Shown here one piece after another: positions 1,108 through 54,357 of a stretch of DNA of 64,000 nt. A program made the translations under genes and the position numbers. The notes under the pieces were generated by a model. The model did not search any database. It saw nothing but the letters and a program-made list of their open reading frames with translations, and was not told the DNA's origin. The first letter of the stretch is position 1, and each line of letters starts with the position of its first letter. The stretch covers positions 60,423 to 124,422 of the forward strand of contig JALWYX010000034.1 of the NCBI GenBank assembly GCA_027078415.1. Direction: 5' to 3'. Origin of the DNA: Thermoanaerobaculia bacterium (GTDB lineage Bacteria; Acidobacteriota; Thermoanaerobaculia; JALWYX01).

Positions 1108-1113
1108 CAGAGA

Positions 1114-10744: not shown

Positions 10745-10836
10745 TGGCGGAAGCGGATGGGAATCGAACCCACCTTCTTCTCTCGAAGAACATCGGTTTT
10801 GAAGACCGAGAGAGGCACCAGCCCCCTACCGCTTCC
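10745..10836 (-). tRNA. selC: tRNA-Sec (selenocysteine tRNA, anticodon UCA)
   Basis: Reverse complement reads GGAAGCGG-TA-GGGGGC-TGGT-GCCTCT-C-TCGGT-CTTCAAA-ACCGA-TGTTCTTCGAGAGAAGAAGG-TGGGTTCGATTCCCA-T-CCGCTTCC-G-CCA. This gives an 8-bp acceptor stem, a 6-bp D-stem with 4-nt loop, a UCA anticodon in a 7-nt loop, a long variable arm and encoded CCA; 92 nt in total. Confidence 0.85.
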
Positions 10837-26976: not shown

Positions 26977-27010
26977 TTTCACCGGGTGAAGTAATATTAT
27001 AGCTAAATCT

Positions 27011-27916: not shown

Positions 27917-28863
27917 TAGTTACCCACAATTCAGCTCCAGATATTGCTAAAGCTCTACAACATCTATATTCGCAAACTCTAAAGCCCAAAACTACTGTAA
28001 TTGTGGATTCGGGCAGTAAAGATAACACTATACCTATTGTGAAAACTCTTCAATATACCAACTTGAAGGTAATAGAACTACAGAATAATGTAGGTTTTGC
28101 TTCGGCACTTAATATAGGAATAGAAAATACAGATTCTCCATGGATACTTTCTTTGAATCCTGATACTCGTATGGAGATACTATACAGCGAGAATATACTA
28201 AATGCGCTTAGCTATTATAGATACGACAGAATCGCATCTGGTACTGGTAGACTAGTTAGATTGGAACAAACCAACATCTTAGACTCTTGCGGAATATACA
28301 TAAATCCAACTTGGCGTCACTTCGACAGAGGTAGCAATAAGGTTATATCTCACTCTTATATACAACCTGGATTTGTATTCGGTGCCACTGGTGCAGCCAG
28401 TTTTTACAATAGAGAAGCGTTAGAAGACGTACAGCTTGAAAAGAGTAAATTTGACCCTTTGTTTCATTCATACAGAGAAGACGCTGAAATAGCCTTTAGG
28501 TTGCAACAGAGAGGGTGGAAAACTGTATATATTCCCTACGCTGTATGTTACCACCGCAGGCAAGTACTACCTGAAAAAAGATCTAAATTATCAAAACATA
28601 TAAACTATCACTCCTTAAAAAACAGGTACCTTCTACGCTTATATCACCAAACCTTTACAAACCTGATTTTAACTTTGCCTATAATCTTACCGCGTGAAAT
28701 AGGGATTGTACTATATTTAATATTCAAAGAGCGCAACAGCTTAAAAGCTTATAGATGGTTATGGAACAACAGAAAGTTGATAATAGAGAGAAGAAAAGAG
28801 ATAAAGAGCAAAAAGCTAATTTCCTTTAACAAATGGTTTTTCAGACGCATATTACCTACTTAA
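27892..28863 (+). CDS. Glycosyltransferase family 2
   Basis: YSVVIVTHNSAPDI...VIVDSGSKDNT...DxD-type region. Confidence 0.75.
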   Translation: MERDYSVVIVTHNSAPDIAKALQHLYSQTLKPKTTVIVDSGSKDNTIPIVKTLQYTNLKVIELQNNVGFASALNIGIENTDSPWILSLNPDTRMEILYSENILNALSYYRYDRIASGTGRLVRLEQTNILDSCGIYINPTWRHFDRGSNKVISHSYIQPGFVFGATGAASFYNREALEDVQLEKSKFDPLFHSYREDAEIAFRLQQRGWKTVYIPYAVCYHRRQVLPEKRSKLSKHINYHSLKNRYLLRLYHQTFTNLILTLPIILPREIGIVLYLIFKERNSLKAYRWLWNNRKLIIERRKEIKSKKLISFNKWFFRRILPT

Positions 28864-31588: not shown

Positions 31589-32201
31589 CCAGATAGTACG
31601 TTACAGCTCCATTGACCTGTGCTGCTGGATTTTGTACAAGGCCAAATCTAAAGTAATCTATGTCGAATGCGCTCGTTGCTAAATTGTTTTTACAAACCTC
31701 TTTATAACTTGGGGTAAGCCTACGCACACATACAAATCCATCTCCATTTCCAGCTCTCCACTCTACTTCAAGCTGATGAGTCTTTGGTGAATTATCAAAA
31801 GACAACCAAACACCACCTACAAAAGTAAAATTACCACTATTCTGTCTAGCCCAAACGTTAAATCTATACGTTCTGTCACCGTCATTTTCTAGATCATGCC
31901 TAAGAAAACCCACTAAAAATACAGCAGGTGCTACATCACGTGCAAAATAAAGTATTCTTAAAGAGCTATCATCTTTTATATTAGTAGCATTTTCAGCACG
32001 TAACATAAATCTAACCTTTACGTGCGTTTCGTTGTTAGGAGCATTTGTTTCCACATACGCTTTATCAGAGGAAGTCCCATCCAGATTAATCTCCAAACCA
32101 TAATTGCCTTCCAACGCAGAGGTATTCGTAACACTTAAAGTGTTTTGCGCCCCTAGAGGCAAAGTAAACAACGCTATCATACCTCCTACCTTTTTCCACA
32201 T
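31560..32201 (-). CDS. Hypothetical secreted protein embedded in the hydrolase cluster
   Basis: Signal peptide MIALFTLPLGAQN. Beta-rich composition. No motif recognised. Confidence 0.5.
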   Translation of the reverse strand: MWKKVGGMIALFTLPLGAQNTLSVTNTSALEGNYGLEINLDGTSSDKAYVETNAPNNETHVKVRFMLRAENATNIKDDSSLRILYFARDVAPAVFLVGFLRHDLENDGDRTYRFNVWARQNSGNFTFVGGVWLSFDNSPKTHQLEVEWRAGNGDGFVCVRRLTPSYKEVCKNNLATSAFDIDYFRFGLVQNPAAQVNGAVTYYLDEFEAYRMP

Positions 32202-32266
32202 AACCTTACTTACCTCCTCTTTTTAGGTACTTTCACATTATAATACATAACTCTTCACCAGCGCAA

Positions 32267-33658
32267 TTAAGAATGCTCGTCTAATATCTTATCTGCTTTG
32301 TTTATAGCTTCTTTTAACTCCTCACTTTTCAAAGACGCTTCTTTCTTAATAATCTCTAGAAGATCTTTTTTAAGAGAATCTATAATACCTTTTCTATCCT
32401 CCAACGTAACCGATCTATCCAACTTGTAGAGATTACTCTTACCAGAAGAGAACGAAAAACTTAGGAAAAAAGGCAAATTAATTATAACAAACCTATCAAA
32501 TAGAGTGGAATCATATTCAATACCAACGACTTTTCGTGCAGCAAAAGCTGAAAGTGCACTTCGTTCATCCCTTAAAAGTGGAAGGAAACTTTTTCCATCT
32601 ATATCGGAAAATAGATCTACTCCTAAATAATCTTCTATAAAAGCGGCAATATCTGCATGAGACACCAGAGCATCTACTTTTTTACCCTTAAATTCAGCGT
32701 TTGGGAACCTTATAACCAAAGGAATTTTAGCAACAGACGGAGACAATTGATAATGACTTAAACTTCCGTACTCACCAAACTCTTCCCCATAATCGGCTGT
32801 AAAAATAACAACAAATTTCTCTAACCAACCATCTTCCCTCAACCACCCAAAAAAATCTCCCAATCTCTTATCTAAATAGTCCACCTGGGCCTTGTAAACA
32901 GTTTTCAGAGCAGCAAGAGCATCTTTAGAAAGTTTTCTTGTCCTGTAAAATTGAAGCCATTTATCCGCACACATACCTTTGAAACAAAACATATCCTCTT
33001 TGATTTTCAATTTCTCCTTTAACGATGGAGGTAAAAAATAAGGTAATTTATTACCATTAGCTGGCGGATCAGGAGCGAGATCACTAATTTGCATAAATAT
33101 GAACAAAGGATCGCTTCTATTTTCATGGAAATCGATTATCCTGACAGTTCTATCAACTATTGAGTCCACATGTATAAACTCACGTTCAGAATCCCTGTAA
33201 ACCGTAAAACCACCTATAAGACCAGATTCTGGACTCAAAAAAGGAGTCGAATAAAAACCGACTGTTTTATACTGAAGATCTAAAAGTTTATGAAAAAACT
33301 GTCTCACATAATTGTTCGATCCCTCAGGAATAGAATTTATAATGCCATGGCGCAAAGGACTAAGTCCAGTAAATAAAGTTACATGTACAGGTAAAACATG
33401 ATTAATTTGAGTATAGAAGTTAGTAAACTCCACACCTTCACTAACCAAAGACTTATATACAAAAGTATTCTTGGCATAATCGAAACTGAACGAGCTAACA
33501 GAAATAAGCAATATATTAGGGTACTCTTCTACTTTTCCAAAAACGTCTAATGATGAAGGAATTACAGTAGATGAACTATTTTCCTTGCTATCTTGGGGAA
33601 AAATGTTACAACCGCTCAAAAATATTAAACTAATGAGAAATAAGCCTTTCAATTTCAT
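32267..33658 (-). CDS. Sulfatase-family lipoprotein S3 with degenerate active site (probable pseudo-enzyme)
   Basis: Lipobox LSGC. Metal motifs degraded (ISVSSFSFD instead of DTxRxD; TADYGEEFGEYG instead of DHGEEFGEHG). Val at the nucleophile position (HVLPVHVTLFTG). Confidence 0.65.
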   Translation of the reverse strand: MKLKGLFLISLIFLSGCNIFPQDSKENSSSTVIPSSLDVFGKVEEYPNILLISVSSFSFDYAKNTFVYKSLVSEGVEFTNFYTQINHVLPVHVTLFTGLSPLRHGIINSIPEGSNNYVRQFFHKLLDLQYKTVGFYSTPFLSPESGLIGGFTVYRDSEREFIHVDSIVDRTVRIIDFHENRSDPLFIFMQISDLAPDPPANGNKLPYFLPPSLKEKLKIKEDMFCFKGMCADKWLQFYRTRKLSKDALAALKTVYKAQVDYLDKRLGDFFGWLREDGWLEKFVVIFTADYGEEFGEYGSLSHYQLSPSVAKIPLVIRFPNAEFKGKKVDALVSHADIAAFIEDYLGVDLFSDIDGKSFLPLLRDERSALSAFAARKVVGIEYDSTLFDRFVIINLPFFLSFSFSSGKSNLYKLDRSVTLEDRKGIIDSLKKDLLEIIKKEASLKSEELKEAINKADKILDEHS

Positions 33659-35099
33659 TTATAAAACACTCCACCCCCAATCCTTTATCGGTGACATCTA
33701 GTAGTACTTCTTGTAAAGTTGCAGCTCCTCGAGAATGAACCTTTTTCCTTAGCCAATCGAGCAGAACGGAAAACTTTCCCTCCTGAAAAGTTTCTTCCAA
33801 ATCGGTTATTTCTTTACGAGCCTGATTATAAAACTGAGCAGCGGACAAAGATCCTAGGGTGTATGTAGGAAAGTAACCAAACAAACCTGCAGCCCAATGA
33901 ATATCCTGTAATACCCCTTCACTTACGTTCCCGGGAACAACACCAACTATCTCTTTGTATAGTTCATTCCATCGCGTAGGTAATTCTTTTACTGTCAAAT
34001 TTTCGTTTATAAGCTCTTTTTCCAGGAGATAACGAACAAAAACGTGTAAATTGTAACTTACAATATCAGCTTCCACTCTTATAAGAGAACGTTTAATCTG
34101 ATTTACATACTTAACCCATTCTTCTATTCCTCCTTCCAGAAAAGGAAAAAGTTCTTTTAATTTATAGAATCCCCAACTCCAGAATTCTTTTCGTCTTCCC
34201 ACGAAATTTTCCCATAGTCTAGACTGTGACTCATGTAATCCTAAAGATATAATCTTACCCAAGGGAGTATAAAACAGAGACTCATCTATGCCCAGCTCGT
34301 ATAAGGCATGTCCAGCTTCGTGTAAAACACCAAATACTGATGACCTGAAATCGTTTTTCCTGTATCTAAAAGTTATACGAACATCGCAAGGGGTAACCGC
34401 TATACACATAGGATGAGTAGATAAATCTAATCTGCTGTCTGTCTCTAATCTTAAGCCAACAGCGCTAGCAAAAAAGGCAGCTGCCTCCCATTGCTTATCT
34501 GGAGAATATTCAAAAACAGAATATTTATCTGAAGCAAAATTAGTTTCATATTTATCAAGCAAACTGTAAGTCTTGGGAATAAGTCTTTCAAAGACTGAAT
34601 CTATAACCTTTTCTGTAATTCCAGGCTCAAATAAATTAAGCAGAGCTTCGTATAAAGAAGTATCATCTTGTTTAAGACAACTAGCTTCCTCTTTTTTAAG
34701 TTTCAGTAAATTGTCTAGCTCTTTTTCAAAAATAGAAAAATCGCCTTCTTTTCTTGCTAATTTCCAAGCTTCTACGGCTAAAGTGGTAGAATAGGCTAAC
34801 GATGTACGTACTTTAGCAGGAACCTTAAAATATCTATCAACCACAATACGAGCCACTCGAGCATGCCTAGCAAACTCTTTACCTTCTTCCTCTATACTGT
34901 CCAAAAGTTCAACAAAATAAGGATCTGTCACAAGCGTATACAAAACACTGTTTAAATGTGCAATTATTTCTGCACGTTGGGAAACAGCTCCTTTAGGCAT
35001 ATATGTCTCTTGATCCCACGCAAAAAGTGCTAGAGCAGATTCTAAAGAGGATATCTTTTTCCACCTTCTAAAGAACTCTTCTCTTAACTCTTTTGTCAT
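33630..35099 (-). CDS. M32 family carboxypeptidase (carboxypeptidase Taq-like)
   Basis: HEAGHALYE zinc motif and full-length M32 architecture. HESQS and IRVEAD family motifs. Confidence 0.9.
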   Translation of the reverse strand: MTKELREEFFRRWKKISSLESALALFAWDQETYMPKGAVSQRAEIIAHLNSVLYTLVTDPYFVELLDSIEEEGKEFARHARVARIVVDRYFKVPAKVRTSLAYSTTLAVEAWKLARKEGDFSIFEKELDNLLKLKKEEASCLKQDDTSLYEALLNLFEPGITEKVIDSVFERLIPKTYSLLDKYETNFASDKYSVFEYSPDKQWEAAAFFASAVGLRLETDSRLDLSTHPMCIAVTPCDVRITFRYRKNDFRSSVFGVLHEAGHALYELGIDESLFYTPLGKIISLGLHESQSRLWENFVGRRKEFWSWGFYKLKELFPFLEGGIEEWVKYVNQIKRSLIRVEADIVSYNLHVFVRYLLEKELINENLTVKELPTRWNELYKEIVGVVPGNVSEGVLQDIHWAAGLFGYFPTYTLGSLSAAQFYNQARKEITDLEETFQEGKFSVLLDWLRKKVHSRGAATLQEVLLDVTDKGLGVECFINEIERLISH

Positions 35100-36488
35100 T
35101 TACAAATACCCCAAGGCTTTTAACTCTTCTTCTACATCTCTATCGAAAGAGTAAAATCTAGCTCTAGGCCAAGCACCATAAATTCTGTCTCTTTTTATCA
35201 TAAGTCTAATAAGTTCTTCTTTTACAGAATTTTTCAACATAGCAGCGTTTCTCTTATCTATCTCGGCAATGTCATGCAACTCCTTAGGATCCTTCATAAG
35301 GTTAAATACCTTAACCCTATCAGTCCTAGGATCGTATTTAACAGAGTAAGGAAAATCTATTATAAAAAAACTCCACCTGTTGTATACATGGGCAGTACCT
35401 ACAATTTTCCTTTTAACCTGATTTTTACTGAGAAGTGAAAATAGAGAAAGTCCATCAAAGGCAACCGGGTATTGCAAACCTAAATAATCTAAGAAAGTAG
35501 GAACTATATCAGGTAGCCAAACCGGTGTATCTACTATCTTAGGAGCATCGTTGTCAGGAGTTATAAGCATCATGGGTATAGCTATTGTTTCGATGAATGG
35601 TTGTGAATGACCAAAATATTTATGTTCCTTAAACTCCTCACCATGATCCGAAAAGATAATAATTATAGAGTTTGAGAATAGATTCCATTTCTCAAACAAA
35701 TCGAAAAGCTTCGCTAACTGGCTGTCAAGAAAGCGTACACCTCTTCTATAGATTTCTTCCACCAATTCAACCTTTTCCGGTTTAAGTGGAATAGCTTCTT
35801 CCCTTACAAGCCGTAACCAGCTATCAGCACATCTGTTGTACCTACAAAAGGTACCTTCTTTTATAGGTAGATCCTTTCTATATGAAGGAGGAGAGTAGTA
35901 AGGTAACGTGTTCCCGTCTCTTCCTTGAGGATCAGAATGAGCATCCATAAAATGGATAAAGGCAAAGAAAGGAACTTTTTCCTCAACTGCTGCTCCCAGA
36001 TAATTGGAAACCTCCTCTAATATAGCTTCCGAAGGAACAAGTTTAAACCGTATTGGAATAAAAACGTCAAATCCTTTGTGGAATCCACCTTCTCGACCCA
36101 AAAGAGCATTAGAATGTATAGCAATGGTTGTGTAACCTTTACTTTTTAAAATTTCAGCTATAGTAGGTATGGAAGGCGGTAAAGCTCCAACTTTTACTTC
36201 CAATATAGAATGTACAATCGAAGACATACCAGTAAAAGCAGACATATGCGAAGGAACCGAGTAATGAGCTGTTGAGAATGCATTCCTGAAAACTATCCCT
36301 TTACGTTCCTCAAAAATTCTCTTTATATTGGGCATATCCAAACGAGGACTCCCTACAAGCTCACCCCAGCAATCACGCCTTACAGTATCCAAAGATATCA
36401 ATATAACGTTCTTCTTTATCTCAGACCTACATCCAAATAACAAAACCAAAAATAACAAAACCACTTTCCTTCTCATCACGCGATCCAA
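35100..36488 (-). CDS. Sulfatase-family lipoprotein S4, non-canonical nucleophile
   Basis: Lipobox LLFGC. ILISLDTVRRD. YSVPSHMSAFTG. FSDHGEEFKEH. C-terminal tail ...EEELKALGYL. Confidence 0.75.
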   Translation of the reverse strand: MDRVMRRKVVLLFLVLLFGCRSEIKKNVILISLDTVRRDCWGELVGSPRLDMPNIKRIFEERKGIVFRNAFSTAHYSVPSHMSAFTGMSSIVHSILEVKVGALPPSIPTIAEILKSKGYTTIAIHSNALLGREGGFHKGFDVFIPIRFKLVPSEAILEEVSNYLGAAVEEKVPFFAFIHFMDAHSDPQGRDGNTLPYYSPPSYRKDLPIKEGTFCRYNRCADSWLRLVREEAIPLKPEKVELVEEIYRRGVRFLDSQLAKLFDLFEKWNLFSNSIIIIFSDHGEEFKEHKYFGHSQPFIETIAIPMMLITPDNDAPKIVDTPVWLPDIVPTFLDYLGLQYPVAFDGLSLFSLLSKNQVKRKIVGTAHVYNRWSFFIIDFPYSVKYDPRTDRVKVFNLMKDPKELHDIAEIDKRNAAMLKNSVKEELIRLMIKRDRIYGAWPRARFYSFDRDVEEELKALGYL

Positions 36489-36712
36489 AAAATATTACTA
36501 CAACACCAAATACCCGGCAACCAAGTAAGTATTAAAGGCAATTATAATTCTAAAACCGGATTTTAAAAATAAGCTTCGCTTACCAATACAACTAAAAAAC
36601 ACGCAAGATGACTTAAAAACAATAATAATGGTACACTTAAAAATCAAAATAGAGCAATTATTTGCCCTATCTTAAAACATTCTAAATATCCCTTCCCAGT
36701 ATTAGCCAACAG

Positions 36713-38161
36713 TTATTTATATCCTAACGCCTCTATAGCTCTCTTTTCCATCCTATCCAGTTCATCCAAAAATTGAGGTTCAGTGACAGCAAGTAACTTT
36801 TTACGCTTCTCTAGTTTAACACTTATCTCAAGATCCAATCTTTTTTTCAAGTTATCAAGCAAATCCTTAAAAGATTTGTCGCTAGCCAAATTATTCTGTT
36901 CCATTCTATCGCTACTCAAGTCAAAAAGTTCTACCAACCCATCATCTTTAATAATCAGATGATAAGGATAAACAATCATAGATCTAAAGTTCAAATTTTC
37001 CTTTTTATGTCCTAGAATAGCAACATCGCGTTTGGGCGTTATACTCTCTATCCAAGGTATCAAACTTTCCCCATCCAACTTTAGGGGAAAATCGTATGTA
37101 ATATTTAGGTAATCCAATATGGTAGGCAAAATATCTTCATGCCCTACAGGTATCTCTATCACCTTTCCTGCCCATCTATTTTTAGGAAACTTTATCAAAA
37201 GAGGAACATGAATATTTTCTACGTAAGGTCTATTGTGTAAAAAAGAACCGTGCTCACCAAACTCTTCACCGTGATCGGCTGTTATTATTACAAACATATC
37301 ATCCAATAAACCTTCAGCATTCAAATATCCAAACAGATCTCCTAACCTCTCGTCTAAATAAACAGCTTGCGCTTCGTATAAACGTTTCATTTTTACAACA
37401 GTACTTTTAGGCAACTTAATGCCTTTTTTTACAACTTCTAACAACCATCTACTAGCACACAGCTCTTTCCAACAAAACTCGGACCTATCAACTTTTATAT
37501 CTTTTCTGTAGGGAAAATAAGAATAATAGGGCAGAAAATTTTCAACTCCCACCATATCTTTATCGAAATCTGAGTGCAGATCCATATAATGTGCAAAAAT
37601 AAATAGTGGACTATCTCCGTACCCCAACCGTGATCTTTCAGATAGAAGATAGGAGATAGAATCGTTTATTCTTTGAGCAAAAGTAAGTCCTCTACCTATA
37701 TCCATGTAAAAGTCAAATCCCTTAGCAAAACCATATCTAGGTCTTAGAAAATAGTTGTGGTAAAACCCAAATGTCCTATAACCGTGTGTTTTCAAAATTT
37801 GAGCGATAGTTGGTATATTTTGCAACAAAGCAGGACCTCGCTCAGCATAAATAACTCCATGAACATAAAAAGACAACCCTGTAAACATGGACATATGAGT
37901 TGGAAGTGTAAAACCTGTAGCAGCATAGACGTTTAAAAAATTTACACTCATATTACTGATATCTTGCAATCTAGGCATAAGAGAATTATCACGGAAAAAA
38001 TGCCACAGATCGGCTCTCATCGTATCTATGGAGATAAACAGAATATCGGGGAGTTTTCCACGAGTACTCTCTATCTCTTCTAATTGTTGCTCATTCATAT
38101 GCTCCGCAAAACATCCGTAAAAAAGAACCACAAAAACTAACAAACACCTCCGAACTCTCAT
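36713..38161 (-). CDS. Sulfatase-family lipoprotein S5, non-canonical nucleophile
   Basis: Lipobox LFYGC. LFISIDTMRAD. FTLPTHMSMFTG. TADHGEEFGEHG. C-terminal tail ...AIEALGYK. Confidence 0.75.
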   Translation of the reverse strand: MRVRRCLLVFVVLFYGCFAEHMNEQQLEEIESTRGKLPDILFISIDTMRADLWHFFRDNSLMPRLQDISNMSVNFLNVYAATGFTLPTHMSMFTGLSFYVHGVIYAERGPALLQNIPTIAQILKTHGYRTFGFYHNYFLRPRYGFAKGFDFYMDIGRGLTFAQRINDSISYLLSERSRLGYGDSPLFIFAHYMDLHSDFDKDMVGVENFLPYYSYFPYRKDIKVDRSEFCWKELCASRWLLEVVKKGIKLPKSTVVKMKRLYEAQAVYLDERLGDLFGYLNAEGLLDDMFVIITADHGEEFGEHGSFLHNRPYVENIHVPLLIKFPKNRWAGKVIEIPVGHEDILPTILDYLNITYDFPLKLDGESLIPWIESITPKRDVAILGHKKENLNFRSMIVYPYHLIIKDDGLVELFDLSSDRMEQNNLASDKSFKDLLDNLKKRLDLEISVKLEKRKKLLAVTEPQFLDELDRMEKRAIEALGYK

Positions 38162-45734: not shown

Positions 45735-46327
45735 CTCCAGATATACATCCAGTAGATAACCCATTAAAATTGTTCACTTCTCTATGGTACGGTGCTAAAA
45801 AGCTTGAAAAGTACGATCCAACCGCTGCAGCACTAGCTACCTCAGGTAAAAAAGGGCCAAGTGTCAGGATAGTACTTATAAAAGAGATTGTGGAAGAGGG
45901 AATTATATTTTACACGAATTACAACAGCAGAAAAGCGAAAGAGCTGCTTAGAGACCCTCGTTGCGCGCTGGTTTTATGGTGGCCTATTACAGGAATACAA
46001 ATAAGGATAGAAGGGAAGGCAGAAAAAATTGCTCCTGAACTTAACGATTCCTATTTTGTATCCCGTCCTAAAAGAAGTCAAGCAGCCGCTATAGTTTCAA
46101 AACAGAGCGAAATACTACACGACTATAACAACTTTGTACGTGAGGTAGAAAAAGTATATGAAGATATAAAAAATAAAGATATCAAAGCACCCTCCTATTG
46201 GGGAGGATTTGTAGTGATACCTGAGAGAATAGAGTTTTTCTACCATCACAGTTTCAGATTACATAAAAGATTCCTATACAGCAAAAGATCTGGAATTTGG
46301 CAATTTGAAGGAATGTTGTACCCTTAA
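45701..46327 (+). CDS. pdxH: Pyridoxamine 5'-phosphate oxidase
   Basis: RIVLIKEI...FYTNYNSRKAKEL...IEGKAEKI...SRPKRSQ...WGGFVVIPERIEFF, the classic PNPOx pattern. Confidence 0.85.
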   Translation: MGHQWFSKYSLTPDIHPVDNPLKLFTSLWYGAKKLEKYDPTAAALATSGKKGPSVRIVLIKEIVEEGIIFYTNYNSRKAKELLRDPRCALVLWWPITGIQIRIEGKAEKIAPELNDSYFVSRPKRSQAAAIVSKQSEILHDYNNFVREVEKVYEDIKNKDIKAPSYWGGFVVIPERIEFFYHHSFRLHKRFLYSKRSGIWQFEGMLYP

Positions 46328-47223
46328 ATCACCACACCCAAAGGTTTTCTTAAAACAATAATAAAAACTATCGTCCAAACGAAAAACACTATCAGCCAAT
46401 GAGTAGAAAAGAGATAAAAGTATCCTCCAAACAGAGAACTTCTATCTCCAAACTCTAGCAAAGGTATATACTTAGGCTCATAGTGTACTTTAACAAATCT
46501 AACAGGTACATTTTTTTCTATTGGGAACTCACTTGCATATAAAAGCATTTGACCTACATATAAACCAGGTTTAACAGTTGATAGAACGGCGTATTTATTA
46601 GGCAAATAGCTGATGCTTTTATCGATCTCATAAGGTCCCAACTTAATTTTTAAACCAAAAACTCCCTCTCTCTCAAACTCTACCCTAGTAAACAAAGTAT
46701 TACTTCGAGCCACCCATACCCAAGGAGTACCTTGCCTGATCCCTTCAGGTAAAACGAGAGATATTTCAGGTTTCCCTGTGGCAGGATCTAACTCTATCCC
46801 TGCAGCTTCCCAACCATCTTTAAGAACCACCTCTAAAGTAAGTTTTTTACCACTGAGATAGCCGTATCTTGAATCAAGATGAGGAAGCAAAAGCAGAAGA
46901 ATAGGAATTATAAAAATCATTGGAGGAAGGGAATAAAGTAAATACTTACCATTCGCTTTAAAAACGTTTAACTGTGCTCGCAATATTCTACTAAAGCTAT
47001 GATTATAAAGTCGCATTTCAAAAAGAGAAGCCCAGATAAGATCTTTAGTTTTCTCTAAAGCTTTTTGGTTGGAAGTCTTTTTAAAAATAATCAGCATAAC
47101 TCCAGATATAAAAGCAGTAAAAATCAGTAAAGTAACAAACGGAAACCTGCTAGCTAAAGGATCGTAAAGATACACAAAGCAGTACTCTACAATCAAATTT
47201 ATATAAGATAATACGGTTAGCAT
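46324..47223 (-). CDS. Hypothetical membrane protein (distal gene of the NPP operon)
   Basis: N-terminal and C-terminal TM helices with a large soluble middle. No motif recognised. Confidence 0.5.
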   Translation of the reverse strand: MLTVLSYINLIVEYCFVYLYDPLASRFPFVTLLIFTAFISGVMLIIFKKTSNQKALEKTKDLIWASLFEMRLYNHSFSRILRAQLNVFKANGKYLLYSLPPMIFIIPILLLLLPHLDSRYGYLSGKKLTLEVVLKDGWEAAGIELDPATGKPEISLVLPEGIRQGTPWVWVARSNTLFTRVEFEREGVFGLKIKLGPYEIDKSISYLPNKYAVLSTVKPGLYVGQMLLYASEFPIEKNVPVRFVKVHYEPKYIPLLEFGDRSSLFGGYFYLFSTHWLIVFFVWTIVFIIVLRKPLGVVI

Positions 47224-47421
47224 CTAAGATATATATCCCAACCCTTTTAATCTCTTCTTTATCTCTTCTTCGTCTTTAGCATCATCAAACTTGGCCAGTT
47301 CCTTTTCAAGTGCATGGGTAATAAACTCTTCCACCGACGCATAACCAGCCACCTCGGCTATTTTCTTTAATTTTTCAACAAGAGCTTTATCCAATTTAAC
47401 TTTCACTTTCCTACCGAACAT
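47224..47421 (-). CDS. Small ribbon-helix-helix (CopG/Arc-like) protein carrying the LGY C-terminal tail
   Basis: KVKVKLDKALVEKLKKIAE fits the RHH beta-alpha pattern. Ends ...EEEIKKRLKGLGYIS, matching the tails of S2, S4, S5 and NPP-C. Confidence 0.55.
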   Translation of the reverse strand: MFGRKVKVKLDKALVEKLKKIAEVAGYASVEEFITHALEKELAKFDDAKDEEEIKKRLKGLGYIS

Positions 47422-47423
47422 CT

Positions 47424-49346
47424 CTATTCACCTCCTCGTCTCTTATAAAGCGAGATTATAAAAGAAGACACTTCTTCCAAAGATTTGGGATACTCTTTCA
47501 TCTTTTTATTTGAAAAGAACACTCCAGGTACACTACCAGGATCCATACAATGATCTCCACTCCACTCATCCCTATTTATCTCTACCACTTCCTTACCAAA
47601 CCCTCCAATAGCAGTTTTATCGGAAGATCTATAGGTTTTAGCGTACCCAACTATCATATCTGGTCCTTTAGCAAGATACTCTCTATTAAACGTTCTCTCC
47701 GTTATATCGACTCTTGTAACAACTCGTTCTCCATTAAGAGGGTTCTCAAAAGCGAGTAACTTTTGCTTTATCTCTTCTAGAATCTTCATCTTCTCTTCGG
47801 GAGGAACTATACCGTGCTTTTCTCTACCTTTTACATTTATGTACAAACCGTTGAGACCTAAAGAGTAGGCCTTAGTTCCATTCCAATCTACATTAACAAA
47901 GTATCCGGGATCTCTAGCAAGAACGCTTTTATTTTTAACCTTTAGATAACCTTCCTCAAGCAACCAATTGTTAAGATTAACAGCGTACCTCCAACTGGTA
48001 AAACCGTGGTCAGAAAGGACTATCAAAGTATCATTCTCTTTCAAATTTTCCAACACAAACCCTATAAGTTCGTCAAACTTCCTGTAAAGGTCTGGAATAA
48101 CATGAGCATATTTACTATCTATTTTCTCGTTGTAAGCCGGATGTTCTGTATCTATAGCTCTCCACATTATATGAGATACCTGATCCAAGTTACCAAAGTA
48201 GTAAAAAAAGAAACCACCTTTAACTTGCGGCAAAATAATTTTGAACTGCTCTATAAGTTCATCTCCAGCGACCTTTGCTTGCTTTAAAAACTCATCTCGT
48301 GTAAATACACCTTCGGTTATAGCCTTGGTATCTTCAGGCATACCTTGCGTATAGAACCTACCTGTAACTCTCGCCAAATTTACAGAAAATTTCTCAGGTG
48401 TAGATATAGGTAAGATAGGATTGTAGGGATCGATGTTTACAGGTGAAGCGTAAAGCTCTAGCTCCGGACGCACGCTCCTTAAGTAAAAACGCACCATAGC
48501 AGGGAGCTTCTGGAGAGGAAGCAAATCAAAACTAAACGGAATCCACTCACTGAATTCACCAGGTTTAAGCACTACCGCAACGTTATCTATAACAACTGTA
48601 ACAACATCATCTATAGGATCTGGATATATAACAAATTTTTTCTTTACTGTAGGATCGTCTGTTAGTTCCGGGTCCAAAAAAGGATTTGGTGGACCGTAAA
48701 GATAAGCTTCTATTTTACCGTCCTCCTCGTAAACTTCGTATACCTCTCCTCCAGAGATCTCTTTACCTGCAAAAGCGAATAACCTAGTTGTATAAAAAGA
48801 GAAAGTTCCATAAGTACCAATCACATCGGGAGTCCCCATTCCCGATAACTCGAAAGAAGCAGTAGATGAAGGAGGAAAATTTGCAGGCATACGTAGTATA
48901 AAAGTCTTTATACCCGAGTTCTCAAGTTTTTCCCAAAATGGAACCCCATATCGTAGAAGTTCAACCTTACCAGAAGAGATAGGTAACCTGTATTTACCTA
49001 TAGAGAAATATTTACCCTCTACACTACGGCTAGTAGAAAGATAGGGAGTCATAGTATCAGGATTTCTATGGATAAAATCAAATATACCATGTCCACCAGG
49101 ATCTAGGCCGGTTATTACACTAGACCAAGCAACTGGGCTTTGAGGTGGAATTGAAGTAGCTAACGAAGAGAAACTACCCTCCTTAGCCAACCTCGCAAAA
49201 TTTGGCAGTTCACCAGTTTCCATAAGCTGCTTGGTTAAAGAATAATCCATACCATCAATTCCTATCACTATAACCCGTTTATATCTCTCCTTCACACAAC
49301 CAAAAATAACAAATAAGCAAGTAAAAAGAACGTACCTTCTTATCAT
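47424..49346 (-). CDS. NPP / type I phosphodiesterase-nucleotide pyrophosphatase-like lipoprotein (AP superfamily) A
   Basis: Lipobox IFGC. VIVIGIDGMD. SPVAWSSVITGLDPGGHGIFDF (NPP-like nucleophile loop). SDHGF. WSGDHCMD. Confidence 0.75.
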   Translation of the reverse strand: MIRRYVLFTCLFVIFGCVKERYKRVIVIGIDGMDYSLTKQLMETGELPNFARLAKEGSFSSLATSIPPQSPVAWSSVITGLDPGGHGIFDFIHRNPDTMTPYLSTSRSVEGKYFSIGKYRLPISSGKVELLRYGVPFWEKLENSGIKTFILRMPANFPPSSTASFELSGMGTPDVIGTYGTFSFYTTRLFAFAGKEISGGEVYEVYEEDGKIEAYLYGPPNPFLDPELTDDPTVKKKFVIYPDPIDDVVTVVIDNVAVVLKPGEFSEWIPFSFDLLPLQKLPAMVRFYLRSVRPELELYASPVNIDPYNPILPISTPEKFSVNLARVTGRFYTQGMPEDTKAITEGVFTRDEFLKQAKVAGDELIEQFKIILPQVKGGFFFYYFGNLDQVSHIMWRAIDTEHPAYNEKIDSKYAHVIPDLYRKFDELIGFVLENLKENDTLIVLSDHGFTSWRYAVNLNNWLLEEGYLKVKNKSVLARDPGYFVNVDWNGTKAYSLGLNGLYINVKGREKHGIVPPEEKMKILEEIKQKLLAFENPLNGERVVTRVDITERTFNREYLAKGPDMIVGYAKTYRSSDKTAIGGFGKEVVEINRDEWSGDHCMDPGSVPGVFFSNKKMKEYPKSLEEVSSFIISLYKRRGGE

Positions 49347-51343
49347 TGCTTCAACAAACTTTTACCATCTATAAACGCAGGAATAGGCACAGCGAACATA
49401 TCTAGTATAGTAGGAGCTAAATCGATTATATTGCACTCCTTACTCTGGAGTTTTAAATTTGTCAACATAATACCAGGAATAAGTTTAGGATCTATACAAT
49501 GATCACCGCTCCAGGCTTTCACATTATCTTCTACAATATCTCCTTTAACCACCCCTCTAGCACCATTCCAAGAAACACGGTAGCCTTTGTTATATCCAAC
49601 TATCAAATCTGGAGCATTATCAACATATCCACCCCAGTAACACTCGGAAGTATCGTAAACTTTGCTAATAACTTTCTCACCTTCATATTCTAAGTTCTCC
49701 AACTTCTTTATTATCTCTTTTTTGATCTTCTTAGCTTCATCTCCGGGATCTACTATTCCATGTGCTTCTCGACCTTTGATATTTAGATATATACCCGCTA
49801 ATCCAAGAGAGTAAGCAACCGTTCGAGACCAATCAACATCTCTAAGCCACTCCCTTTCACCGCTATATTTCTCTTTGACACACAGATAACCTTCCTGCAA
49901 CAGCCACGCGTTAAGGTTTATACCCTTTCTAAACGAGTTAAAGCCGTGATCTGAGATGACAAACACAAAATCCCCCTCCTTCATCTTTGCAAGGAGCTTA
50001 CCCAATATGCGGTCGTTATTACGGTATAACCTTTCTATAGCATCACTTTTTTTTCCTTTCGGATTTGCTGGATGATTATAATCTATATAACGCCAAAACA
50101 TATGTTGTATCCTATCGGTAGCATCGAAAACGGCAACCAATACTCCTTGATCCAAATCATCTAAAAGAGAAAAGAACTGCTCTTCTCTCTCTTTATCTAT
50201 ATCAAACACCATTTGCAAGAATGTATCGTCATCTATAACCTTCTCATTCAACGCCCAGGTATCCTCAGCTAAACCTAAAGTAGCGTATTTACCCAATTTA
50301 TAGCGTAAATAAGGAGCAAAATAATTTGGATGCGAAATAGGCATAGCAGGCCTTTCAGGATCTATATTCAAAGGAGTAGAGTAGAGAAATATATCATCTC
50401 CTTCCCTAAAGAAAAGAAGACGAGTTATCGCAGACACTTTAACACCGGGCAGAAGTCTATACCTAATATCAACCCATTCGCTCAACTTACCTTCCTTTAG
50501 AAACAGAGACTCCCTATTGAAATGTATGTAACAACCTTCATCGTACAGTTCTAACGTAAAAGGCAACTTAACCTCTTCTTGAGAGACCTTAAATATATTA
50601 GGTACTCCAGGAAACTCACCTCTGTACAAACCGTTCTTTACCTTTATAAGTCTCTTACGTATACCTCCTTCTTCAAATTTTCCATCTTCCTCGCTTGAGG
50701 AAAATAATATAAATGTACCCTGTGTTCCAAGAATATCAGGAACACTCATAGCGGAAAGTTCTACTCCAAAAAATTGATCCGGTGGAAAAGTAATAGGGAC
50801 CCTTAATATAGAACTCCATACACCGTACTCACCCAACGTTACCCAGAACGGCTTTGACTTACGCAACAATTTCAATTCAGGCTTACCTAGAGGAATCCTA
50901 TATTTTCCCACTCTTAAAAATCTACTAATATTACCTATTTTCGAAGAAGATATAACAGGAAGATAGCTCTTAGGATCTCTAGATAGAAAATCGTATATAT
51001 TATGTTTGCCCGGATTTGTTCCTGTGGAAAAGGAAGACCATGCAACAGGAGAAATAGCAGGTATGGTAGTCCCTAGTTCAACAAAACAACCTTCCTTAGC
51101 TAACTTAGAAAAATTGGGTAATATACCTTGATCCATAAATTTACGAGTAAGTTCAGGGTCTTGACCATCGAACCCTAAAACTATAACCCTTCTAGCTAAA
51201 GGTTTACCCTTTCTCTTTGGAAGGGTAAAATATCTATATAGTTTTTTAAATGGCCAGATAAGCAGCGACAAAATGGCAACTATGAGAGTTATAACAACCG
51301 CGAAAAGAGAAGAAACTAGGGCAAAGCCTGCCCCAGGTCCCAC
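49343..51343 (-). CDS. NPP / type I phosphodiesterase-like membrane-anchored protein B (start uncertain; ORF is open up to 51667)
   Basis: RVIVLGFDGQD. SPVAWSSFSTGTNPGKHNIYDF. SDHGF. WSGDHCID. One or two N-terminal TM helices. Candidate starts are GTG 51343 and ATG 51499/51559/51667; the longer forms overlap the divergent sulfotransferase gene. Confidence 0.65.
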   Translation of the reverse strand: MGPGAGFALVSSLFAVVITLIVAILSLLIWPFKKLYRYFTLPKRKGKPLARRVIVLGFDGQDPELTRKFMDQGILPNFSKLAKEGCFVELGTTIPAISPVAWSSFSTGTNPGKHNIYDFLSRDPKSYLPVISSSKIGNISRFLRVGKYRIPLGKPELKLLRKSKPFWVTLGEYGVWSSILRVPITFPPDQFFGVELSAMSVPDILGTQGTFILFSSSEEDGKFEEGGIRKRLIKVKNGLYRGEFPGVPNIFKVSQEEVKLPFTLELYDEGCYIHFNRESLFLKEGKLSEWVDIRYRLLPGVKVSAITRLLFFREGDDIFLYSTPLNIDPERPAMPISHPNYFAPYLRYKLGKYATLGLAEDTWALNEKVIDDDTFLQMVFDIDKEREEQFFSLLDDLDQGVLVAVFDATDRIQHMFWRYIDYNHPANPKGKKSDAIERLYRNNDRILGKLLAKMKEGDFVFVISDHGFNSFRKGINLNAWLLQEGYLCVKEKYSGEREWLRDVDWSRTVAYSLGLAGIYLNIKGREAHGIVDPGDEAKKIKKEIIKKLENLEYEGEKVISKVYDTSECYWGGYVDNAPDLIVGYNKGYRVSWNGARGVVKGDIVEDNVKAWSGDHCIDPKLIPGIMLTNLKLQSKECNIIDLAPTILDMFAVPIPAFIDGKSLLKQ

Positions 51344-51386
51344 GTAAGCAAAAGAAACGTTAGGAAAAAGGAGAAAAATAAACAAA

Positions 51387-52043
51387 ATGAACAGAACAAA
51401 AGAATATACACGCCCATTTTCGTTAACCAGAAAGCTACTTTTCGGGAAACCTATAATAGTGGTATCAGGATTACCCCGCTCAGGAACTTCAATGGCCATG
51501 AAAATGCTTCGTGATGGGGGATTAGAAGTAGTATCGGACAACAAGCGTAAAGCTGACATAGATAATCCAAAAGGATACTTCGAATATGAACCTGTCAAAG
51601 ATATCCACAGATCGGGGCAAAACCTGAAATGGCTAAAAAAAATACGAGGCAAAGGTATCAAAATCATCTCCTTCCTCTTACGTTATCTACCCGATAATAA
51701 CAATTACAACATAATATTTATGCAACGCGATCTCAACGAGATCTTAGTTTCTCAAGCCAAAATGCTTCATCGTAGGGGCGAAGAACACTCTATCCCTGAC
51801 GAAAAAATGATGGTTTTCTGGAAAGAACACCTCGAACAGATATTCTTTATAATGCACCATCGCCCCTCTTTTCGCTTTATAGTACTAGATTACCTAGACG
51901 TTATTCAAGACCCTCGAAGCGCAGCTAAAAAAATAGAATCTTTCCTCAATATAGACCTAGACATAGACAAAATGGCAGAAGCAGTTTCACCAGAACTTTA
52001 CCGAAACAGAAAAGAAAATTTAATAAAAAGCACAAAAGGTTAA
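51387..52043 (+). CDS. Small sulfotransferase-family protein (PAPS-dependent, Sulfotransfer_3/Stf0-like)
   Basis: 5'-PSB-like loop VVSGLPRSGTSM near the N-terminus. 3'-PB-like IIFMQRDLNEILVSQ. AGGAG RBS upstream of the ATG. Confidence 0.6.
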   Translation: MNRTKEYTRPFSLTRKLLFGKPIIVVSGLPRSGTSMAMKMLRDGGLEVVSDNKRKADIDNPKGYFEYEPVKDIHRSGQNLKWLKKIRGKGIKIISFLLRYLPDNNNYNIIFMQRDLNEILVSQAKMLHRRGEEHSIPDEKMMVFWKEHLEQIFFIMHHRPSFRFIVLDYLDVIQDPRSAAKKIESFLNIDLDIDKMAEAVSPELYRNRKENLIKSTKG

Positions 52044-52501
52044 AGCGATATATCAAAACTTTTAGATTAAACCAACTACACTCTAAAGTAGAAAAAACGC
52101 TGTACAATCTTAATACTCAAAATCACGATAAAAATTACAAAAACACAACTCCTTAGTAGATCTCCAAAACTTAGAAAAATAAAACTTTTTCTCAACACAA
52201 TATTTTTATCTCCTAAAGCTAATAACCCTTTAAATTAAAAAATAGACTTTACACCATCTATTAAACGCTTTTATACTCCTAATTCATCGCAACATCAAAA
52301 ATCAAATTGCCAATATCAGGCAAACAACTTATTCATATAAAAAGTTTCAATAAAGTAACAACACTCTTTACACACTTATGTACCTTACAACTAGCAGGTA
52401 AACACACATATAACAAATAAGAATTGTAAAAAGATGCAAAACAGATCTACCAAAAGTATTTTTCACAAAAAAACAGTAAAAAAAAGAGAAGAACAAAAGT
52501 T

Positions 52502-54046
52502 TTACGGAAGGTATCCCAAGCTTTTTAAAACCTTGAGGGTACTTTCATCTAGGTATTTATTACTTTTTTCCGTCTTTACTCTAAGAGGATAGCTATCTAT
52601 AAATCTAGGAGGGTATTTTTTTATAAAGTGATCATTTATAACCGATAAAAAACCTTTACCATTTTTTTTAGGCACTGGATATCCTTGCAAATATAAAATA
52701 AGGGGATTTAAATCCAATATGGATAATGTGACGTTTCCCTTTTTAAAAGGGGGCCCTACAGCCAAAAATACTCCCGGAGGAGCACTGATATGGTGGAGGT
52801 TATCAAAATCGAATCCATGATCTGAAACTACTATAACAGCTACATTTGACAAACCTTCTACAACTTCCTTTAGAAATCTTTCGAAATCCTTATAACGTTT
52901 AATTATAGGTTCTTTGATACCTCTTCTATAGTCTCTACCACAGTAGTGGTGAAATTTATCTACAGAAACAAACTCTGTAGCTAAAAGATCATAGTCACCA
53001 GTCAGAAAAACCTGCCACAAAAGATCTTCTTCATAAGAAGATAAAAAATCCCTACACTTATCTGAAATAGCACTTTTACTCGACAGGTCATTTAACCTAT
53101 ACTTGTAAACATCATAATTTTCAGTTTCCAAGTTTAGATGAAAATTGGTAATAATAGTTCTGTTAGTTAGTAACCATTTAACAACTGCATAACTACGAGT
53201 AGATCCTACAATCTCCCAAAATGGCGGATACAAACTGTTTTCCAAATTTGAAAGTCTAACAATTTCTTGTTTGAAAATCATCTTTATAAAAGGAACTACA
53301 AAAAAATTGAGCCCTACATGTAAAGGAAAAGAAGATATATGCGATTGCAAACCTGGCAAATCGAAAAATATAAAATGTTCTATTCCATGTTTATCCGGTG
53401 TTACACCAGTAGCCATAGAACTCCAAACTGCTGCAGAAAGAGCAGGATAAACGGTTGTTAGTTCTCCGTAAGTAGCGTTTTGTAGAAGAGATCTTATAAA
53501 CGTGAGTTCTCCCGAGAGTGCAAGGTTAAAGAGCAGATGAGGGTCTAACCCATCACTTACAAGTAGAATAGTTCTAACTGGTACTCTGCTTTCTACCTCA
53601 AAATGCACTTCTGAAACTCTTTCTGTCTGTGTCACATAAGGAAACAGTAAACCTCTTATTACAATAAGAGAAGCTACAACTCCTAAAACATAGCTAATAT
53701 ACTTGAATCTACTTATAAAAAAAGCGATAACCAGCGCTGCACAAATAAACACAACTAGGTATCCGATTTTACGAGAAAAAAGTAAATTACTAAGGAAGTA
53801 AGTGTTTATTTTTAATTCGGGTAAGAGCAAAGTGTATACCAATACAAATGCTCCAATTATATAGTGGACAAAGCCATCTTTTCTTAAAAATTTTCGTAAT
53901 GAACTTTCTATTATCGCTATAACAAGTAGAGGAATAAACAGGTAGAGCAAAAACAGTACTCTATCTTTGATAGTTAACCAAGAATTTAACGAAATAGTTA
54001 GAAAAAATACTACACTTATAAAGAGATAAACCGTTGAAGTTATCAC
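52502..54046 (-). CDS. NPP / type I phosphodiesterase-like protein C with about 5-TM N-terminal membrane domain
   Basis: About 150-aa polytopic N-terminus. ILLVSDGLD. LSAAVWSSMATGVTPDKHGIEHF. VSDHGFD. C-terminal tail ...LKVLKSLGYLP. Confidence 0.7.
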   Translation of the reverse strand: MITSTVYLFISVVFFLTISLNSWLTIKDRVLFLLYLFIPLLVIAIIESSLRKFLRKDGFVHYIIGAFVLVYTLLLPELKINTYFLSNLLFSRKIGYLVVFICAALVIAFFISRFKYISYVLGVVASLIVIRGLLFPYVTQTERVSEVHFEVESRVPVRTILLVSDGLDPHLLFNLALSGELTFIRSLLQNATYGELTTVYPALSAAVWSSMATGVTPDKHGIEHFIFFDLPGLQSHISSFPLHVGLNFFVVPFIKMIFKQEIVRLSNLENSLYPPFWEIVGSTRSYAVVKWLLTNRTIITNFHLNLETENYDVYKYRLNDLSSKSAISDKCRDFLSSYEEDLLWQVFLTGDYDLLATEFVSVDKFHHYCGRDYRRGIKEPIIKRYKDFERFLKEVVEGLSNVAVIVVSDHGFDFDNLHHISAPPGVFLAVGPPFKKGNVTLSILDLNPLILYLQGYPVPKKNGKGFLSVINDHFIKKYPPRFIDSYPLRVKTEKSNKYLDESTLKVLKSLGYLP

Positions 54047-54051
54047 TTTTC

Positions 54052-54357
54052 TTATCTATTACTATTTTCAATATACTCCTCTATTGAAATTCCAGTTATA
54101 TTTAGAAATCTCTGATAGTAACTAATTCCCACAACTTGATCGCGGTCAAAATCTATTCTTTCTATCCTACGCATAGGAAAAAAAACGGTTGATAATCCTA
54201 GCGTTGGTGAACCTCTTACTATTTCTCTTACCCATTCATCAAAGAAATCTAAACTTATAGCTTTAACAAGTACTCCTTCACTTCCCAACTTAAGAAGTTT
54301 GCCCCACATCTTTTCTCTAGGGTTTACCAGATGCAATACTACGAATTCCCCTTCCAT
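54052..54357 (-). CDS. Hypothetical protein
   Basis: 101-aa ORF between the epimerase and NPP-C genes in the same operon. No motif recognised. Confidence 0.45.
   Translation of the reverse strand: MEGEFVVLHLVNPREKMWGKLLKLGSEGVLVKAISLDFFDEWVREIVRGSPTLGLSTVFFPMRRIERIDFDRDQVVGISYYQRFLNITGISIEEYIENSNR

Follow-up and report, generated by a model that had tools for sequence, protein, structure and literature searches.

A Conserved Gene Cassette Linking Paired NPP-Type Enzymes, an RHH Protein, and a Membrane Protein to a Minimal Sulfotransferase in Acidobacteriota and Other Phyla

Gene Organization of the Locus

A 64,000-nucleotide stretch of contig JALWYX010000034.1 (positions 60,423–124,422, forward strand; GenBank assembly GCA_027078415.1) from a Thermoanaerobaculia bacterium, hereafter the window, contains a compact locus at 46324–54046 that encodes three nucleotide pyrophosphatase/phosphodiesterase (NPP)-type proteins, a small sulfotransferase (ST), a ribbon-helix-helix (RHH) protein, and a membrane protein. 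The source is a metagenome assembly and the GC content of the window is low (~36%). All six open reading frames (ORFs) listed in an earlier reading of this DNA (the initial annotation) were present, and the gene types that it assigned agree with the Pfam results. On the minus strand, NPP-B (49343–51499, with the ORF extending to 51667; PF01663, E = 2.5e-31) is followed by its paralog NPP-A (47424–49346; a lipoprotein of 640 aa; PF01663, E = 2.8e-35), RHH65 (47224–47421; 65 aa; RHH_1, E = 3e-5), and MEM299 (46324–47223; a membrane protein of 299 aa that matches no Pfam family). ST218 (51387–52043; 218 aa; PF13469, E = 1.9e-10; PF00685, E = 5.1e-8) is located on the plus strand, divergent from NPP-B. 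On its other side is NPP-C (52502–54046, minus strand; 514 aa with five N-terminal transmembrane [TM] helices; PF01663, E = 3.2e-23). The gene order is as initially described, and the spacing is tight: NPP-B and NPP-A overlap by 4 nt, NPP-A and RHH65 are separated by 2 nt, and RHH65 and MEM299 abut directly. A protein identical to NPP-A was found on ENA and Logan contigs, and the next nearest homologs are only ~55% identical. When the window proteins were scanned against NCBIfam, just sub-threshold PhnA matches were obtained and nothing specific.

Conservation and Phylogenetic Distribution

A profile built from NPP-A homologs yielded 80 loci from species-representative genomes and at least 579 confirmed relatives. 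To score gene arrangements, every ORF of these 80 loci was searched by phmmer using the proteins of the window as queries. The exact arrangement of the window, with a divergent ST followed by NPPB-NPPA-RHH-MEM, was found in 32 loci, and trivial variants that also contain the ST account for ~7 more. A permuted core (NPPA-RHH-MEM-NPPB, the Terriglobia type) was found in 17 loci and in three others with an ST nearby. The remaining patterns are NPPB-NPPA-RHH-MEM without an ST (10 loci) and an NPP-A-like gene only (five loci). In total, the ST is linked to the cassette in ~40 of the 80 loci. The hosts belong to at least seven phylum-level groups, namely, Acidobacteriota (Thermoanaerobaculia, Vicinamibacteria, and Terriglobia), Gemmatimonadota, Myxococcota, Dadabacteria, Nitrospirae, Eiseniibacteriota, and Spirochaetia. 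An arrangement kept in about half of the loci is far beyond chance, and the neighborhood conservation that the initial annotation had proposed as a check is clearly present. We regard the core operon as nppB-nppA-rhh-mem, with the window carrying one copy of a widespread uncharacterised envelope module.

In the reciprocal direction, an ST profile was used to scan metagenome contigs and the best 80 ST relatives were retained. The cassette is present in 46 of the 53 informative loci (87%); the flanks of the other 27 are too short to judge, and seven loci lack the cassette despite having at least 3 kb on both sides. This linkage indicates that the ST family is a dedicated partner of the cassette, though the core also occurs without a nearby ST. 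The all-vs-all clustering of neighboring ORFs was noisy due to shadow ORFs in high-GC genomes; apart from sulfate-activation genes, cysQ, and sulfatase-like genes, it revealed no other universally linked family in the 80 loci.

Association With Sulfate Activation Genes

Genes for synthesis or turnover of 3′-phosphoadenosine-5′-phosphosulfate (PAPS) are directly beside the cassette in 17 of the 80 loci (sat-cysC, cysNC, or cysQ), as determined by ORF clustering, targeted phmmer, and Pfam. These neighbors include bifunctional ATP-sulfurylase/adenosine-5′-phosphosulfate (APS) kinases, CysN-CysC fusions or separate Sat and CysC, and CysQ of the inositol-monophosphatase family. The adjacency supports a link between the cassette and sulfation. 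The initial annotation had pointed to the PAPS-synthesis genes as a check; they are found in these related loci, whereas sat, cysC, and cysQ are all absent from the 64-kb window. CysQ, the phosphatase that acts on 3′-phosphoadenosine-5′-phosphate (PAP), is co-encoded in at least 10 loci, which suggests that PAP removal is conventional and not carried out by the NPPs.

Two types of loci illustrate this linkage. In L083–L085, which add to the 17 loci, independent gene calls gave the order PAPS synthase, CysQ, divergent ST, NPP-B, NPP-A, a 63-aa protein, and a 277-aa protein. In L082 and L069, a single co-directional operon contains cysQ, a paralog of the RHH gene, sat, cysC, a gene for a soluble NPP-like protein, nppB, nppA, rhh, and mem, and no recognisable ST was found within 10 kb. 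As a separate observation, genes related to c-di-GMP (GGDEF, EAL, and PatA_N + PilZ; ~900–4500) are located directly upstream of the PAPS synthase-CysQ-ST-cassette block in L083–L085, which are contigs of 2.3–9.2 Mb. In that lineage, they are a hint of regulation of the biofilm or exopolysaccharide type.

A Minimal Sulfotransferase

The two Pfam matches of ST218 are above the cut-offs (PF13469, 41.8 bits vs. 27; PF00685, 33.1 bits vs. 22). The protein carries a 5′-phosphosulfate-binding (5′-PSB) loop GLPRSGTS (51468–51491, plus strand) and a 3′-phosphate-binding (3′-PB) motif RDLNEILVS (51726–51752, plus strand). The loop, R114, and S122 are invariant in the 13–43 homologs compared; the alignment of ST218 with 42 homologs also showed N60, P61, G63, Y64, and E66 (DNPKGY.E), as well as LYRNR, to be invariant or conserved. 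The spacing of the Arg and Ser residues corresponds to what we take to be the typical 3′-phosphate-binding motif of known sulfotransferases. Based on these motifs, ST218 is identified as a minimal (~200 aa) PAPS-type sulfotransferase, which agrees with the initial assignment. Among solved structures, the family profile is nearest to TPST2 and TPST1 (E ~5e-4), followed by cytosolic sulfotransferases (SULTs). The TPST match covers profile positions 11–38 alone, which is the PSB region; no full-length similarity of the TPST or RaxST type was found, and ST218 is ~100 aa shorter. A search of the single sequence against PDB matched one designed protein, which we judged spurious. No export signal was found in ST218 or in RHH65.

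The ST218 family also occurs apart from the cassette. In L156 (5213–9616), a relative of ST218 without the NPP cassette is followed by two sulfatase-like proteins with tetratricopeptide repeats (TPR) and a TLPAH nucleophile motif. This pairing suggests that the family is associated with Thr-nucleophile enzymes of the alkaline phosphatase (AlkP) superfamily more generally.

Paired NPP-Type Enzymes With Predicted Opposite Topology

All three NPP-type proteins exceed the PF01663 cut-off of 23 bits (NPP-A, 122.9; NPP-B, 110; NPP-C, 83.3). NPP-B and NPP-A share 39% identity across 615 aa (BLASTP), and NPP-C is a distant relative with ~33% identity to these two that is restricted to its N-terminal 82–133 aa. 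The nucleophile loop SxxxWSSxxTG..H with its Ser and the DHGF motif are common to all three, as initially noted, but the loop of NPP-B ends in HNI rather than HGI and the last metal-binding His motif (GDHC) is found only in NPP-A and NPP-B. In the NPP-A family, D31, S70, D388, H392, D446, H447, and H599 are invariant; in the NPP-B family, D167, S206, D518, H522, D573, H574, D722, and H723 are. The two-metal ligand set and the Ser nucleophile are therefore complete and invariant in both families, and NPP-B appears to be an active-looking two-metal phosphodiesterase or phosphotransferase of the NPP type. Each of the two proteins also has a beta-rich insertion of ~200 residues. A sequence search with NPP-A against PDB returned zero matches; by fold comparison, the AlkP core is nearest to NPP-clade structures, with Xac NPP, ENPP1, and ENPP4 among the solved neighbors, and the near folds also include two phosphatases, PafA and PhoK, and two lipid phosphodiesterases, NPP6 and NPP7.

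The first ~56–85 codons of the NPP-B ORF are the antisense of the conserved N-terminal/P-loop region of ST218, and this shadow ORF recurs in other loci. The true start of NPP-B is probably the ATG at 51499 or later, such that ST218 and NPP-B are probably arranged head-to-head with overlapping 5′ ends (51387–51499). In L083–L085, ST and nppB are 56–77 bp apart. The N-terminal anchor of NPP-B (~51251–51412) consists of a signal-peptide-like segment ending in AxA (small-x-small), an invariant Y[IVA]GPGAGFA motif, a TM helix, and a K/R-rich linker. The AxA and Y[IVA]GPGAG elements were found in 69 of 70 NPP-B homologs. The 25-residue linker between the TM helix and the GFDG motif of the catalytic domain has a median of eight K/R and zero D/E. 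Because this linker is K/R-rich and lacks acidic residues, the positive-inside rule predicts a cytoplasmic catalytic domain, and a cleaved-signal-peptide/TM anchor would keep NPP-B at the inner membrane, on its cytoplasmic side. The initial proposal that NPP-B is membrane-anchored is retained, but the prediction for its catalytic domain is a cytoplasmic and not a periplasmic location.

By contrast, NPP-A has a short hydrophobic leader that ends in a lipobox-like Cys (...LFVIFGC in the window protein), such that we predict an exported periplasmic lipoprotein. A lipobox-like motif was found in 52 of 68 homologs, and C17 is conserved in at least 90%. The distance from this Cys to the catalytic core is 13–22 residues. 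NPP-A and NPP-B are thus predicted to be on short tethers at opposite membrane faces, and these tethers suggest membrane-borne substrates.

NPP-C is accessory and outside of the conserved core. It has five hydropathy peaks in residues 1–135, and the charge bias of alternate loops (six vs. five K/R) gives no decision on its topology. The same architecture, including the C-terminal tail described below, is found directly upstream of the cassette in a Spirochaetia metagenome-assembled genome (MAG; locus L046).

Other AlkP-superfamily genes are also present in the window. A row of five PF00884 sulfatase-like lipoprotein genes is located at 28852–38161 (minus strand), broken by a 213-aa ORF without assignment and an M32 carboxypeptidase gene. 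Together with the three NPPs, these make eight AlkP-superfamily genes in 25 kb. The nucleophile motifs of the five lipoproteins follow the pattern T/S-x-P-x-H/V (TAPSH, TVPSV, SVPSH, and TLPTH), and the formylglycine motif C/S-x-P-x-R was not found in them. Upstream of this cluster (24426–27048, minus strand) are genes for an initiating sugar-phosphate transferase (Bac_transf + CoA_binding_3) and a GT4 glycosyltransferase, which represent a possible link to a surface glycan.

RHH65 and the LGY Tail

RHH65 scored 24.2 bits against RHH_1 (cut-off 20.5), and its family profile aligns to the RHH domain of NikR (NikR residues 2–43; E = 0.01) with the strand-helix-helix pattern. The protein consists of this NikR/CopG-like domain, an acidic linker, and an invariant tail ...RLxGLGY[IL]x (~47227–47271). 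Homologs were found in 72 of the 80 loci, and RHH65 is the most conserved part of the cassette: the median identity to the window protein is 64%, compared with 47–50% for the enzymes and 28% for MEM299. Across 32 diverse representatives, M1, the GY turn, G60, L61, G62, and Y63 are invariant. The family comprises 419 clusters at 50% identity; nearly all members are stand-alone proteins of ~65 aa, and one has tandem RHH domains. The 817-aa protein P0367 contains a full NPP-B (signal peptide, YVGPGAG anchor, and catalytic domain), a linker of ~30 aa, and an RHH65 domain ending in GLGYLS. P0367 could be a genuine fusion, or two genes may have been joined in gene calling.

The pattern of the tail, an acidic stretch followed by L..L.xLGY[ILV]x-COOH, is not confined to RHH65. 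NPP-C ends in ...LKVLKSLGYLP (52505–52537), and three of the five sulfatase-like lipoproteins in the window end in ...EVLGYL, ...KALGYL, and ...EALGYK. Membrane-anchored sulfatase-like proteins that flank the cassette in Gemmatimonadota, Vicinamibacteria, Dadabacteria, and the Spirochaetia MAG also have such tails. In L082 (4171–4479) and L069 (4346–4615), the gene between cysQ and sat specifies another RHH-LGY protein, a divergent one (MSDRVSIKIPRPLYNRL...IRKKLENLGYL); in the same loci, the native ...LELLGYV end of the APS kinase is extended by an appended acidic linker and a second tail, ...RLQALGYL. The sulfatase-TPR proteins of L156 have an internal ...RRLESLGYIAGK LGY element at the end of the catalytic domain. 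The tail is absent from NPP-A and NPP-B. These patterns are compatible with an LGY tail that docks onto AlkP-type domains, in cis within sulfatase-like proteins and in trans from RHH65, as we infer from its distribution.

MEM299, a Putative Oxa1-Superfamily Protein

An AlphaFold2 model of MEM299, generated with database homologs as input, has a mean predicted confidence (pLDDT) of 84.5 and shows TM1, a two-helix coiled coil, TM2, a beta domain, and TM3. The beta domain is Ig-like, has ~120–150 residues (~46414–46863), and is located in the periplasmic loop between TM2 and TM3. From the charge distribution, the coiled coil and C-terminus are predicted to be cytoplasmic and the Ig-like domain periplasmic. 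In structural comparison, TMCO1 was the best match. The Oxa1 superfamily is characterized by a core of three TM domains with a cytosolic coiled coil (PMC5868721), and the modeled MEM299 has these features, which suggests that it adopts an Oxa1-superfamily fold of the DUF106/TMCO1 type. The same work describes DUF106 as a family of archaea and eukaryotes (PMC5868721). Many homologs of MEM299 are annotated by JGI as "DUF106 family"; with PF01956 (EMC3_TMCO1), the window protein has no match, and three of 17 homologs matched weakly, the best at E = 0.002, which is below the confident level.

Other Features of the Window

The minus strand has a 101-aa ORF (54052–54357) between a glyoxalase/epimerase-like gene and NPP-C, without a Pfam match. 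This ORF, pdxH, and algH were excluded from the module because no counterparts were found in the other loci among the 80. The sole tRNA gene of the window is a tRNA-Sec (10745–10836, minus strand; anticodon TCA), so the host probably makes selenoproteins.

Proposed Function and Alternative Explanations

The evidence supports a conserved, sulfation-linked, membrane-associated module. Our preferred reading, to which we assign a probability of roughly 40%, is a two-sided membrane machine for making or processing an envelope molecule, either a lipid or lipid-linked, that is sulfated and contains a phosphodiester. This is close to a second possibility raised in the initial annotation, in which a surface molecule with phosphodiesters is processed. 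That annotation did not recognise the predicted location of the two enzymes on opposite sides, the Oxa1-like fold, or the LGY tail. Starting from the domain identities, the invariant catalytic residues, the synteny, the PAPS-gene linkage, and the folds observed here, we infer the class of substrate, the order of steps, the topology, and the role of RHH65 as follows. ST218 would be the dedicated cytoplasmic PAPS-dependent sulfotransferase and the usual partner of the core. Acting with NPP-B, it would sulfate and phosphodiester-process a membrane-embedded substrate (a lipid head group, lipid-linked glycan, or phosphodiester) at the inner leaflet. The substrate would then cross the bilayer, aided by a groove of MEM299, and on the periplasmic side NPP-A and accessory LGY-tailed AlkP enzymes such as NPP-C would cleave or transfer it. 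An RHH65 dimer would most likely dock through its LGY tail on a partner, with NPP-B as the prime candidate, and act as a scaffold or feedback regulator. In favor of this reading are the synteny, the PAPS-gene linkage, the features that predict opposite membrane faces for NPP-A and NPP-B, and, for RHH65, its higher conservation relative to the enzymes, the NPP-B::RHH65 fusion in P0367, and the LGY tails common to co-encoded AlkP enzymes and CysC.

Several observations weigh against this reading. The core lacks an ST within 10 kb in ~30 of the 80 loci, and the core chemistry may be something else, with sulfation added on. Across the 80 loci, consistent linkage was not found for genes of glycosyltransferases, lipid synthesis, or flippases. 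LGY-like C-termini are native on APS kinases and on yeast uL13, such that the tail may be a generic helix-capping motif. The N-terminal half of RHH65 is basic and NikR-like, so that the protein may act as a conventional repressor on DNA. The only role of MEM299 could be to insert the unusual anchor of NPP-B. The active-site loop of the NPP-A model (residues 67–92) has low confidence, and the topology assignments are predictions from the positive-inside rule and lipoboxes. Finally, we found no paper that mentions the cassette.

Some of these points converge on a looser grouping of the genes, which is unlikely but survives better than the other alternatives. Here, NPP-A and NPP-B would be phosphodiesterases for phosphate scavenging or phospholipid head groups, MEM299 an insertase for the N-out anchor of NPP-B, and RHH65 an autorepressor, with the ST making an unrelated sulfated metabolite or a phosphorus-free sulfated lipid substitute. 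The near folds PafA and PhoK (phosphatases) and NPP6 and NPP7 (lipid phosphodiesterases) fit such roles, and proteins of the Oxa1 family insert short N-out or tail-anchored segments (PMC5868721). The resemblance of RHH65 to the NikR DNA-binding domain and the candidate −10 elements between ST and nppB are also in its favor. However, no conserved operator or repeat for an RHH protein was evident in the 41 ST-nppB intergenic regions inspected, only these −10-like elements, and RHH65 exceeds the enzymes in conservation and, in P0367, is fused to NPP-B. The 87% linkage of ST to the cassette also counts against the looser grouping, and Pho-regulon genes are not consistently adjacent in the 80 loci.

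A more specific and bolder version of the membrane machine, which we consider quite unlikely, is a trans-membrane relay for activated sulfate or a sulfated head group, by which bacteria would achieve sulfation in the periplasm without a PAPS transporter. With PAPS as the donor, ST218 and NPP-B would attach sulfate to a lipid carrier (e.g., a polyprenyl or lipid phosphosulfate, or a sulfated phosphodiester), MEM299 would move the carrier across, and NPP-A with the LGY-tailed, Thr-nucleophile sulfatase-like enzymes would modify envelope targets. In such a relay, docking or regulation would fall to the RHH-LGY protein as a subunit of a new kind, and MEM299 would be a case of a bacterial Oxa1 protein of the DUF106 type that has been co-opted for the transport of lipids or small molecules.

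The tyrosine of the LGY tail would be a different acceptor. ST218 might sulfate this residue in RHH65, and maybe in other tail-bearing proteins, with AlkP-superfamily enzymes that read, remove, or pass on the aryl sulfate. TPST2 and TPST1 are the best solved-structure matches of the ST profile, Y63 is invariant and preceded by an acidic stretch, arylsulfatases are members of the AlkP superfamily, and the ST family is repeatedly paired with LGY-bearing AlkP enzymes (including the sulfatase-TPR proteins of L156). We nevertheless regard this as very unlikely: the TPST match does not extend beyond the region of the PAPS-binding loop, and the C-terminal third of TPST has no counterpart in ST218; the residues at −1 to −6 relative to the Tyr are basic or Gly, a context that differs from typical sulfation sites; many of the proteins with LGY tails are exported lipoproteins; and the RHH tail is equally conserved in loci without a nearby ST.

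The initial annotation had favored nucleotide recycling, in which the NPPs hydrolyse PAP, PAPS, APS, or other nucleotide by-products in support of the ST. Enzymes of the NPP clade cleave nucleotide phosphodiester and phosphoanhydride bonds, and Xac NPP, ENPP1, and ENPP4 are among the nearest solved folds. The predicted cytoplasmic location of the NPP-B catalytic domain would expose it to PAPS and PAP, and in L069 and L082 the PAPS genes share an operon with the NPP genes while no ST is found within 10 kb. This proposal is disfavored and highly improbable, since an exported NPP-A cannot reach cytoplasmic PAP, a dedicated PAP phosphatase is co-encoded where CysQ is present (at least 10 loci), and the core persists without an ST in ~30 loci; the anchor, the Oxa1-like partner, and the periplasmic paralog would also be superfluous for the turnover of soluble nucleotides. 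A role in anti-phage defence was rejected, as the seven proteins searched had zero matches to PADLOC models.

Returning to the two-sided membrane machine, its confirmation would mean that hundreds of species of soil- and sediment-dominant phyla (Acidobacteriota, Gemmatimonadota, Myxococcota, Nitrospirota, Dadabacteria, and some Spirochaetes) have an undescribed envelope-modification pathway tied to sulfate activation. It would also provide a case of a paralogous NPP pair working on opposite faces of one membrane, and a bacterial DUF106/TMCO1-type protein in an enzyme operon would bear on the debate on whether insertases also move lipids. The minimal sulfotransferase family would serve as a further handle. 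So would the hyper-conserved RHH protein, since the occurrence of its LGY tail on AlkP-family enzymes and APS kinase as well points to a short linear motif for docking. Even if our guess of the substrate is wrong, the cassette is a well-defined, testable unit.

Comparison With Known Systems

Within the NPP/PhnA/PafA clade (PF01663), NPP-A and NPP-B differ in having Ser as the nucleophile, whereas the usual one is Thr, and in their beta-rich insertion of ~200 aa, with no solved structure matching by sequence. They also form an obligate paralog pair predicted on opposite membrane sides, and the AxA/YIGPGAG-TM anchor of NPP-B is unique. LtaS, EptA, OpgB, and PbgA are similar in that they have membrane-tethered catalytic domains of the AlkP fold with a Thr/Ser nucleophile and act on phosphodiesters of lipid head groups; their layout of five TM helices and a catalytic domain is common to NPP-C. 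However, these enzymes belong to PF00884 and all their catalytic domains are extracytoplasmic, whereas all three NPPs of the window are of PF01663, the catalytic domain of NPP-B is predicted on the cytoplasmic side, and NPP-A is a putative lipoprotein without TM helices.

RHH65 has the same strand-helix-helix pattern with a conserved GY turn as the RHH domains of NikR and CopG, but in place of an effector domain it has the acidic linker and the invariant LGY C-terminal peptide. Its conservation across phyla, at a median identity of 64%, is unusual for a repressor. The modeled layout of MEM299 agrees with the three-TM core and coiled coil of the DUF106 branch of the Oxa1 superfamily (archaeal Ylp1 and eukaryotic TMCO1/EMC3/GET1). 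It differs from that branch in being bacterial, in having an Ig-like periplasmic insertion and an extra N-terminal helix, and in being encoded in an enzyme operon rather than as a general insertase.

Bacterial clusters for PAPS-dependent sulfation, such as the rhizobial nodPQ/nodH genes, likewise have a PAPS-type ST beside sat/cysC and cysQ, a feature found here in a subset of genomes. The constant partners in our loci are instead two NPPs, an RHH-LGY protein, and an Oxa1-like membrane protein, none of which, to our knowledge, belongs to any described sulfation cluster, and acceptor-biosynthesis genes are not linked. Each part of the cassette comes from a known superfamily, while the combination is without a described counterpart: NPP paralogs predicted on opposite membrane sides, a putative bacterial DUF106/TMCO1-like protein with an Ig-like insert, a hyper-conserved RHH-LGY protein, and a minimal ST.

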